Assembly: GCF_029227855.1 (NCBI RefSeq)
Contig: NZ_CP074357.1
DNA length: 64,000 nt
Source: Escherichia coli
GTDB lineage: Bacteria; Pseudomonadota; Gammaproteobacteria; Enterobacterales; Enterobacteriaceae
Strand: one strand, 5' to 3'
Within the stretch, counting starts at the first letter, position 1, and each line of letters begins with the position of its first letter. Shown piece by piece: positions 54,001-57,000 of the stretch. The position numbers were made by a program.

Positions 54001-57000
54001 GTACCCGACTTTGATGCCGTTCATCCAAATTACCAGACGTTGCTGTTTCCGGCTCATATCGTTACCAATCCTCCTGTCGTGCAGGTGAGTTTGATTTAAG
54101 CATTTCTTCCGTCTGCTTCCTCTCTGAAGAGGTGGTTGCCGAGGAGAAGCTGATTTTTACGCCCAGGATGGAAAACACCTTGAATAGCCGTTCAATGCTC
54201 GCACTGGCAGGGTTGGCTTCCAGACGTGAGTATGTCTGTTGAGTGACGCCTAACCTTTCGGACAGGTCTTTTTGCGTCAGGCCATTCGCCTTGCGAAAAC
54301 CAATGAGCAAGGGACGCAGCTGGTTGAGCGTGTTTAACGGGTAATCATTATTGATCATAAGCTGGCCTCAGTAGTTTCCTCTGATACACCTTGCAGGCTG
54401 TTTCCTAAACATACACCCTAAAAGCTGTAATATCAAATTAACAGCCTAAAAGCTGTTAAATAGGGCGTACAACTTTTAGGCTGTTACTATGTGGCAGCAT
54501 AAATCTTGTTAGCGATACAACTTTATTGTCTCATCGCTCCTCTTTGCAACCAGCTACATACGATCATAAGTGACACAACATTAATATGAAGCGACATTCA
54601 CCAAATGAACCTTCGTCATTTCAGATAGTTAGCTTACTTGCATGTCCTCATCCCATGAAGGGGAGGGCCTACCCATGGCATCGAGCAAAACTGACCACCC
54701 TGCCCTTATTAAGACCCCACATGCGGCAATGGTGCCCTGTCCACGCCGCCCGCGATTTTTGAGGAAATGGGAAGAAAATAAAAAGAAAACAAAAAGTTAT
54801 CGGCTGAAGTATCGGCGCAGATCGGGAATCAGGCGAAGCCTGACAGCACGTTGGGGCCTGGCAGGGGGCTTGAGGGATGAGGACATGCAACTCTGATAGC
54901 CTTCCCGCCACGGGATCGGTTAAATTCGTATCCGGCCGGTGCAATTCCAACGGCCGCGTTACCAGTTCGCCGGGTAGCATGGCCAGCAAAGCCAGGCATC
55001 GAGCACCCGGGTTTCACTAACGGCCGCTGCATAGACGCCGGTATCCGGAAAGAAATAAACCGGGGTGGCGTTGTTCAGCTGGTCGCCTTCATCGGCCAGA
55101 GCGCCGATCACCTCATGAGGCTTCAGCAGCATATCCGTTAAATATTCATCCGGGTGGATGGCATTCAGCGATATGGCCATCTCCAGAAATTCATCCAGTG
55201 TGTGGCGGGTACGATACCCCCGGAAAACCTCGTATGAAGGCGTGACGCATTCACCATCCAGGGAACAGGCATCGTACCCGGCCAGCTGCTCTTCGGTGAG
55301 TCCGGAGGCATGCTTTGCCACAAGATTCGTAAACTGCTCTTTATCGTCCATCACAATCCTTACGCTGTAGGGGCCTGTTTGTGTTATCACTGCTTCCGGA
55401 TTTTACATCGCACAACCCGGCAGGTATCCGGTCGCCCGGGCGTCCTTTGCGGTCATGTTAGCCTTTGGCCTGTATTACGACGAATCCCTTTCACTACACG
55501 GGCTCGCAGGGTGACACCTCCCCTTTTCACCGGAAGCGAAAGAGGAAGAACAGTTTAACAGCCCGGATCCTCAATAATTTTTGCATAACGGACTAAATGA
55601 CCGGTTTATGCAGCCCCTGTTACTTACTGTCGCGGTAAGGATAAAACCCTGGTTATGAAACAGAGTTTGTATCGACGTTTAGGTTTTGGTTGAATGAGTA
55701 ACTCTAAGCAACCGGAATATGACATGGCCAAAGTACAAGGGCTCTTTGTTGGATACCGAAAATTTGCTGTTGATCGCGAGTGGCTTCGGCAGCAGGAAGA
55801 ACAACGTTATCGGGATCGCCAGCGACAATTTGATGAATGGTCCAGAAAATGGGTCACTGTAACTAGGCTAAAAGAGACTCGTTTATGGACTGACGGAGCC
55901 ATCAGGCGATGGCTGGGTGAACCTCAGCAACAGGGTAAATATAAAGTTTTCCCCGTTGAAGCGGTTTTGGCTGCTGAGAAGTTGAATGAGTTTCAGCTCT
56001 GGCTTAAACCCCGGCTGGAAAAGAAACGTGCCCAGCATCACCACTTTTTAATTCCATTTCTGTAAAGTAGAAACAACGACAGTTCCGGCTGCATTCAAGG
56101 CTTCGGCATCTGGTCAGAAGTAAAGCGCCATTTTTCATTATAAGGGAGGTTAGATTGTGGAAGGTATTGAGACACTGAGTTTGCGGCTTGATGAGAACGA
56201 AACTATGGCCCTTGCTCAATTTGTTAAACGTCTGAGCTGGAGCGATCTACGTGGTTGTGCTGTGAGTGACGAAGAAGCCTGGGTAATGAAAAGCGCAGTT
56301 GATAAATTACAACAGGCGTTAAGGGAAGAAGGTTATGCGCCTCGATGATGCAGGCTTCGTGTTATTTTCCGATGACAAATTTTCTTAAGGACTAAGTATG
56401 AGCCAGCACTGGTATGAGGTGAAAAGCAATCAGGGAATTGTTCAGGTGATGTTAGGCTGGGATCCACCTTTGCAGTGGTTTCATATGTGCATTGATTATG
56501 ACATTAATGCAGCAGAAGACCCACTCTATACTAATCTGGCTGAACCTGATCCCTACTACGTTACTCCGGAATATCTGCAATTTGTACTTGAACGCTTCGA
56601 AATAACGGATATTGTAATAAAGCCCGATACCTCTGGGCTTTACGAAGAATTATTAATGGATCAGCTTTTAGACCGATAGCTAAGCTGCCAGCAACAGACG
56701 TGCTGGCATAATCGTCACTTAACTGTAATGTCAGATACTTCAGGTACAAATGTCCGGACTCGTTTGAAACCTATCCAAAACTGTAAATATATTTTCGTTA
56801 TAATATAACCTTAATTGAATTGCTTTCTAACAGTTCCCACTCTTCTTTTCTAAGTACATTTTTAATTATTGTTCCATTGGCAAGCGTCAGCTCATACTCC
56901 CTGTCACTATAAATAAGGTTTTTATTTTCGACTCGTCGAAAGCTGGTAATGGCAACCTTTCTTTATCCACCTAACGAATAATTATCTTTGATTTCTGCGA

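Follow-up and report, generated by a model that had tools for sequence, protein, structure and literature searches.

The hipBA operon carried by an IncHI2 plasmid of Escherichia coli raises the question of which DNA sequence its HipB recognises. The genes lie in a stretch of 64,000 nucleotides from contig NZ_CP074357.1, here called the window. An earlier note on this DNA had described a complete hipB-hipA pair preceded by three copies of an 11-bp motif in place of the TATCC-N8-GGATA operators of E. coli, and had proposed a divergent HipB operator by which the module would have its own regulation on the plasmid. IncHI2 plasmids are important vehicles of multidrug, mcr and tellurite resistance. 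More than 1100 sequenced plasmids have this hipBA operon in their backbone, and a known operator gives a handle on the regulation of the module, on its insulation from chromosomal hipBA and on interference by orphan HipB paralogues. The analysis indicates, with a probability of about 0.85, that the region upstream of hipB is the autoregulated promoter of the IncHI2 hipBA operon, with a clade-specific HipB operator consisting of four phased sites.

The gene pair is complete, as had been claimed. The antitoxin and repressor gene hipB (54062-54358, minus strand) encodes a helix-turn-helix (HTH) protein of the Cro/C1 type with 98 amino acids, which ends in PARQEDW and matches Pfam HTH_3 (4.5e-15). 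It is followed on the same strand by hipA (52732-54057), encoding a HipA-family Ser/Thr kinase toxin of 441 amino acids with the Pfam domains HipA_C (3.6e-51) and Couple_hipA (3.7e-21), both scoring far above the cut-offs. The two genes are 4 nt apart and AGGAGG is found 12 nt ahead of the hipA ATG. The closest solved structures are those of E. coli HipA (E 1.4e-100) and E. coli HipB (E 1.4e-6). In pairwise alignment the plasmid HipA is 41% identical to HipA of E. coli K-12 over 425 amino acids, and the plasmid HipB is 32% identical to E. coli HipB over the 57 amino acids of the HTH core. Residues S156, D313 and D336 of the plasmid HipA align with S150, D309 and D332 of E. coli HipA, the catalytic and autophosphorylation residues of the kinase. 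S150 of E. coli HipA is also described in PMC10627512. The C-terminal Trp of HipB is invariant in 10 aligned HipBs, that of E. coli included, and insertion of a hydrophobic or Trp residue at this end into HipA has been proposed (PMC10627512, PMC8262856). The toxin domains, the kinase residues, the adjacent upstream HTH protein and the terminal Trp of HipB place the pair among the HipBA type II toxin-antitoxin modules, in which HipB would neutralise the toxicity of HipA.

Many plasmids typed IncHI2A have the 2-kb module at 100% identity, and 1186 plasmid records match it. The gene pair is thus well known and has an existing annotation; the PGAP label for HipB is only "helix-turn-helix transcriptional regulator". 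The module adjoins the tellurite-resistance (ter) genes on the IncHI2 backbone. No second hipB or hipA homologue was found in the 64-kb window with tblastn.

The repeat unit upstream of hipB, obtained with a repeat finder, is a 16-bp near-palindrome, ACAnC-N6-GnTGT with the core ACAG-N8-CTGT, present in four copies with start-to-start spacings of 27, 28 and 28 bp. The 11-mer reported earlier, CTAAAAGCTGT, is merely part of this unit. Its three copies do exist, two of them exact (54418-54428 and 54446-54456) and one with a single mismatch on the opposite strand (CTAAAAGTTGT, 54469-54479), but they are not the full count; the proximal palindrome, whose centre differs, had been missed. Numbered from the distal end, O1 (54469-54484, starting at -126 from the hipB ATG) reads ACAGCCTAAAAGTTGT on the hipB strand and ACAACTTTTAGGCTGT on the plus strand, O2 (54441-54456, -98) reads ACAGCTTTTAGGCTGT and ACAGCCTAAAAGCTGT, O3 (54413-54428, -70) reads ACAGCTTTTAGGGTGT and ACACCCTAAAAGCTGT, and the proximal O4 (54386-54401, -43) reads ACAGCCTGCAAGGTGT and ACACCTTGCAGGCTGT. 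The only perfect palindrome of the four in the window is O2; each of O1, O3 and O4 deviates by a single half-site change. The inverted arrangement first described as ACAGC-N7-GCTGT corresponds to O2, where the gap is in fact N6 (ACAGC CTAAAA GCTGT); this is also the sole exact ACAG-N8-CTGT in the 64 kb.

In the 200 bp upstream of hipB, four sites match ACAG-N8-CTGT in at least 7 of 8 positions, whereas 5000 dinucleotide shuffles gave 0.106 sites on average and at most 2. A weight matrix built from other Enterobacterales only, with the near-identical IncHI2 copies left out, ranks O3, O2, O4 and O1 as first to fourth in the 64 kb, with 27.6, 26.4, 22.7 and 20.2 bits. The next-best matches have 12.3 and 8.1 bits. 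The 12.3-bit match, at 15161-15176, was rejected as a further operator and is taken as chance because it stands alone, where an unannotated ORF ends in A+T-rich DNA.

Operators of the known types are not part of this arrangement. The lack of E. coli-type operators stood up to a closer inspection: no TATCC-N8-GGATA was found in 54359-54600 with up to 2 mismatches allowed, and the promoter of E. coli K-12, included as a positive control, gave four perfect sites. The Shewanella-type GTGTA-N6-TACAC has just one match upstream of hipB, with 2 mismatches (54374-54389), and its 10 matches across the window are below the chance expectation of 15.

The palindromes overlap a predicted promoter. A sigma-70-like promoter, TTGATA-17-TATGTT, was assigned on the hipB strand from a consensus scan only, with 9 of 12 consensus matches. 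Its predicted -35 hexamer (TTGATA, 54431-54436) and -10 hexamer (TATGTT, 54408-54413, overlapping the last base of O3) leave a 17-bp spacer that is occupied by O3. Because O4 begins 6 nt past the -10 hexamer, it covers the predicted transcription start, near 54401 on the minus strand. A ribosome-binding site GAGG, read from the sequence, lies at 54366-54369 on the same strand, 7 nt before the hipB ATG (54358-54356). In the enterobacterial relatives a TTGnnn hexamer separates O2 from O3 just where the predicted -35 hexamer does in the window, and a TAttGT-like hexamer (TATTGT, TATGTT or TAATGT) abuts O3 as the predicted -10 hexamer does here.

The same palindrome is found upstream of hipB on other plasmids and in other species. 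A tblastn search with HipB against plasmids gave homologues with 39-96% identity, eight of which were fetched, and the palindrome is present upstream of hipB in seven of the eight (HipB identity 41-96%), on plasmids of Citrobacter, Rahnella, Cronobacter, Klebsiella, Salmonella, Enterobacter and Ralstonia. Four copies with a 27-28 bp period occur on the IncHI2A Citrobacter, the Rahnella, the Cronobacter and the Ralstonia plasmids, and two copies precede a hipB without hipA on the Enterobacter, Salmonella and Klebsiella plasmids. The remaining homologue, from Variovorax (39% HipB identity), has several copies of another palindrome, TACCCAT-N3-ATGGGTA. A HipB-alignment query of one genome per species gave 80 further hipB loci in Enterobacterales and Burkholderiales, nearly all of them with three or four palindromes at the same 27-28-bp period. 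Loci of the Burkholderia cepacia complex have four degenerate ACAG-N8-CTGT sites with a period of 27 bp that are not picked up by the stricter ACAGC-N6-GCTGT scan.

Pooled, 87 loci of the two orders have the palindrome ahead of a hipB relative, with four sites in 43 loci, three in 31 and two in 9. The DNA upstream of hipB, 16.6 kb in all, contains 292 sites (17.6 per kb), and the other 344 kb of these loci contain 79 (0.23 per kb). In the shuffle test, 288 upstream sites compare with 4.7 ± 2.1 after dinucleotide shuffling of the upstream DNA. Neighbouring sites are 27 bp apart in 167 cases and 28 bp apart in 30. The symmetrised family consensus is T-ACAG-n-CTATAG-n-CTGT-A, with an A/T-rich, semi-conserved centre and with an outer ACA/TGT that is essentially invariant, an invariance partly forced because the sites were chosen at core matches of at least 7/8. 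The window locus, with four copies at 27/28/28 bp directly upstream of hipB, falls within the clade defined by TACAG-N8-CTGTA. The proposed regulation of its own on the plasmid needs a qualification: the probable recognition sequence differs from that of E. coli, but this operator type is not plasmid-specific. It is the rule in a large HipBA clade, mainly chromosomal, to which the IncHI2 copy belongs.

Several observations connect the sites with HipB rather than with its surroundings. The palindromes accompany hipB whatever the neighbouring genes, on plasmids as well as on chromosomes, and they are retained where hipA is lost or reduced to remnants. Since an orphan hipB without hipA keeps them, the palindromes belong to hipB and not to hipA. 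In the HipB alignment a recognition helix of the form [TS]QQ[TS]YAxxEANP is present wherever the palindrome occurs; the HipB of the window has TQQTYSRLEAN. The corresponding helix is KQATISNFENN in E. coli HipB, with its TATCC operator, and SQSRMSHMELN in the Variovorax HipB, with its other palindrome. Members of the clade with Arg at HipB position 45 tend to have C at half-site position 5 (86% vs 22% of half-sites), which makes Arg45 a candidate specificity residue. The association is compatible with an Arg-guanine contact, but it is only a lead, because the split is largely the divide between Enterobacterales and Burkholderiales, with one independent Burkholderia case (L063). Taken together with the 87 loci, the 27-28-bp phasing and the promoter register, the recognition helix gives strong comparative support to the suggested divergent HipB operator, and the palindromes are very probably binding sites of the HipB repressor.

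Three other explanations of the palindromes were considered. Functionless chance similarity in A+T-rich intergenic DNA might be suspected from the relaxed core, which is common in the window (24 matches with up to 1 mismatch, 19 expected), but it accounts neither for four phased copies where 0.106 were expected, nor for an independent matrix that puts the same four sites at the top of the window, nor for the conservation of the palindromes in 87 loci, and is effectively refuted. It is very hard to maintain that the palindromes act as RNA or DNA structure, as hairpins or as terminator-like insulators against read-in transcription. Any palindrome can form a hairpin, and a scan flagged O2 and the T-run that follows it as terminator-like on the hipB strand; this call was set aside as a by-product of a palindrome next to the A+T-rich -35 region. 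The stem has merely 3 G-C pairs, all sites but one precede the predicted transcription start, hairpins would give no reason for so strict a 27-28-bp phasing, and no Rfam family matched 52000-56500 at E up to 0.1. In the 87 loci the outer ACA/TGT is, within the limits set by the 7/8 selection, kept essentially invariant without covariation, as is characteristic of sites whose bases are read directly by a protein.

A base-specific protein need not be HipB, and the specificity of an HTH protein is unreadable from sequence alone; the link between HipB and the sites is a comparative one. The palindromes could in principle be bound by another protein, a host factor or another plasmid regulator, with HipB recognising something else. 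This is nevertheless unlikely to a high degree, as the sites have been passed on together with hipB in two orders, on plasmids and chromosomes and amid unrelated neighbouring genes, are retained by orphan hipB genes without hipA, and are replaced by a different palindrome when the HipB recognition helix changes. Moreover, no second palindrome family is conserved upstream of these hipB genes.

The interpretation of the four palindromes as HipB operators agrees in its architecture with the well-studied Hip systems. HipB is an established autorepressor in E. coli and in Shewanella, acting at four palindromic operators in each (PMC4150777). E. coli K-12 hipBA has the same gene order, hipB then hipA, and also has four 18-bp palindromes of the 5-N8-5 format within the roughly 110 bp that precede hipB. 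These start at -134, -106, -67 and -39, compared with -127, -99, -71 and -44 for the window sites when written as 18-mers. The spacing is 28/39/28 bp in E. coli K-12 and a uniform 27/28/28 bp in the window, and the half-site is TATCC in the former and TACAG(C) in the latter. The gene junction also differs, as hipB and hipA of E. coli overlap by 1 nt whereas the window genes are 4 nt apart.

The HipAB system of Shewanella oneidensis MR-1, with four evenly spaced copies of GTGTA-N6-TACAC (PMC4150777), is a precedent for a HipB operator that is not of the E. coli type. Its 5-N6-5 format also fits the window sites, but the sequence differs and the orientation about the dyad is opposite, GTGTA...TACAC as against ACAGC...GCTGT. 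The gap between operators is 34 bp in Shewanella and 11-12 bp in the window (27-28 bp start to start). Shewanella HipA is distant from the plasmid HipA (E 2.8e-21, compared with 1e-100 for E. coli HipA), and Shewanella HipB is absent from the structure matches of the plasmid HipB. In Legionella pneumophila, lineage-specific operators of the HipBST system were defined by cross-species conservation followed by EMSA (PMC10653801), of which the conservation step alone applies to the window sites. HipBST differs in being tripartite, with three sites of six-nucleotide inverted repeats, 53-bp gaps and a HipB that is not the antitoxin (PMC10653801). The hipBA of an IncA/C plasmid of Klebsiella michiganensis, a member of another HipBA cluster, has been shown to stabilise its plasmid and is expressed under the native promoter, with its operators left unmapped (PMC11487325).

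Only two hipBA operator types are mentioned in the 2023 paper on Legionella HipBST (PMC10653801), and in the open-access full-text literature no description was found of a HipB operator of the TACAG/ACAGC type or of the regulation of IncHI2 hipBA. The clade-wide operator sequence class is thus apparently undescribed. It would be a third class of hipBA operator sequence beside those of E. coli and Shewanella, common to a large clade that spans Enterobacterales and Burkholderiales. Hip systems are already known to differ in their operators, however, and the window very probably contains an ordinary self-repressing toxin-antitoxin promoter; the finding leaves the known mechanism of HipBA unchanged.

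By analogy with the E. coli and Shewanella systems (PMC4150777, PMC8262856), one HipB dimer would bind each palindrome through its helix-turn-helix. With O3 lying between the predicted promoter hexamers and O4 over the predicted start, occupancy would exclude RNA polymerase and so repress hipBA, while O1 and O2 may add affinity or cooperativity; adjacent operators in Shewanella showed no cooperativity (PMC4150777). The A/T-rich centre, YTWWAR, suggests indirect readout by DNA bending, which has been reported for complexes of HipB with its operators (PMC4150777). HipB-bound HipA would, as in E. coli, be a co-repressor that is kept inactive at the promoter DNA, and loss of the labile HipB would then both derepress the operon and release the kinase. 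Binding, repression and the co-repressor role of HipA at the plasmid promoter are thus inferred from the related systems, and a role of the plasmid hipBA in addiction or persistence is presumed by analogy with other hipBA modules, such as the plasmid-stabilising one of Klebsiella michiganensis (PMC11487325).

E. coli HipA dimerises on adjacent operators, and the interface includes G22, P86 and D291. The plasmid HipA has conserved counterparts of these residues in G25, P91 and D295. As the interface residues are conserved and the spacing equals that of O1-O2 and of O3-O4 in E. coli, a higher-order HipA-HipB-DNA complex like that of E. coli is plausible on the plasmid too. The difference between the half-sites, TACAG and TATCC, implies that plasmid and chromosomal HipB should not cross-regulate.

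An orphan hipB paralogue with 64% identity has the same recognition helix, the same C-terminal PARxExW tail and two operators of the same type, but no hipA. It is rather doubtful, though conceivable, that the TACAG-type operator defines a network of cross-talking HipB proteins in which the orphan HipB represses hipBA in trans or neutralises HipA. If so, an orphan hipB on a Tn7-like element would modulate or disarm an addiction module, as an anti-addiction or dosage-buffering function. The orphan paralogue is carried by 199 plasmids, and one IncHI2 plasmid holds both the orphan hipB and a 100% identical copy of the hipBA of the window.

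Comparison of the two IncHI2 lineages, which carry the 100% and the 97.8% variants, shows that their shared homology stops at about position 54507, some 20 bp upstream of O1, the distal of the four operator-like palindromes. Because of this position of the boundary, the hipBA cassette together with all four operators behaves as a discrete unit. Immediately upstream of the module is a 253-bp MITE-like unit, the edges of which are formed by a perfect 17-bp inverted repeat (TTGCATGTCCTCATCCC at 54638-54654 and GGGATGAGGACATGCAA at 54874-54890). The unit is found as a single copy within the window, and a plasmid without hipBA carries a 99.4% identical counterpart of the segment 54547-54700, which includes part of it.

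In public plasmid annotations the PGAP start of HipB is placed at the second codon (ATC), giving a protein of 97 amino acids. An ATG at 54356-54358 lies one codon upstream of this start, with a GAGG 7 nt before it. Relatives have an ATG at the equivalent position.

Repeated decay of hipA with hipB and the operators kept was seen in five of the comparison loci from other plasmids and genomes (L009, L010, L012, L021 and L028). In the first four only short HipA remnants follow hipB, and in the Lelliottia locus (L028) hipB has an in-frame stop.

A hipB paralogue without hipA is located at 1880-2303 of L003, a locus from a Salmonella IncHI1A plasmid, and at 126343-126766 of NZ_CP019647.1, both outside the window. 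The encoded protein is 64% identical to the window HipB, with which it shares the recognition helix and the PARxExW tail. Upstream of the gene are two copies of ACAGC-N6-GCTGT, 27 bp apart, and a Tn7-like tnsD adjoins it. This orphan gene was found in 199 plasmid records, and in pSTM6-275 it occurs about 40 kb from a 100% copy of the hipBA of the window. Cross-repression by the orphan HipB, or activity as a trans-antitoxin, is possible.

The hipBA of a Variovorax paradoxus megaplasmid shows 39% identity for HipB and 48% for HipA. Its upstream region (L008, 1880-2000) has three or four copies of TACCCAT-N3-ATGGGTA, unlike the palindrome of the window, and its HipB recognition helix, SQSRMSHMELN, also differs. 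The Variovorax palindrome is a candidate for a further operator class.

Elsewhere in the window, the fifth best operator score (12.3 bits) was obtained for a lone site, ACAGCTTATATTTTGT, at 15161-15176. The surrounding DNA is A+T-rich, and the site falls at the 3' end of an ORF without annotation that spans 14855-15196; its likeness to an operator is probably due to chance. An 18-mer, GATTCATCAACACGGATA, occurs in six identical copies in both orientations (1310, 25368 and 45466 on the plus strand; 27055, 34341 and 47348 as the reverse complement), which suggests that one insertion sequence is present several times in the window; IS26 is annotated in a related plasmid.
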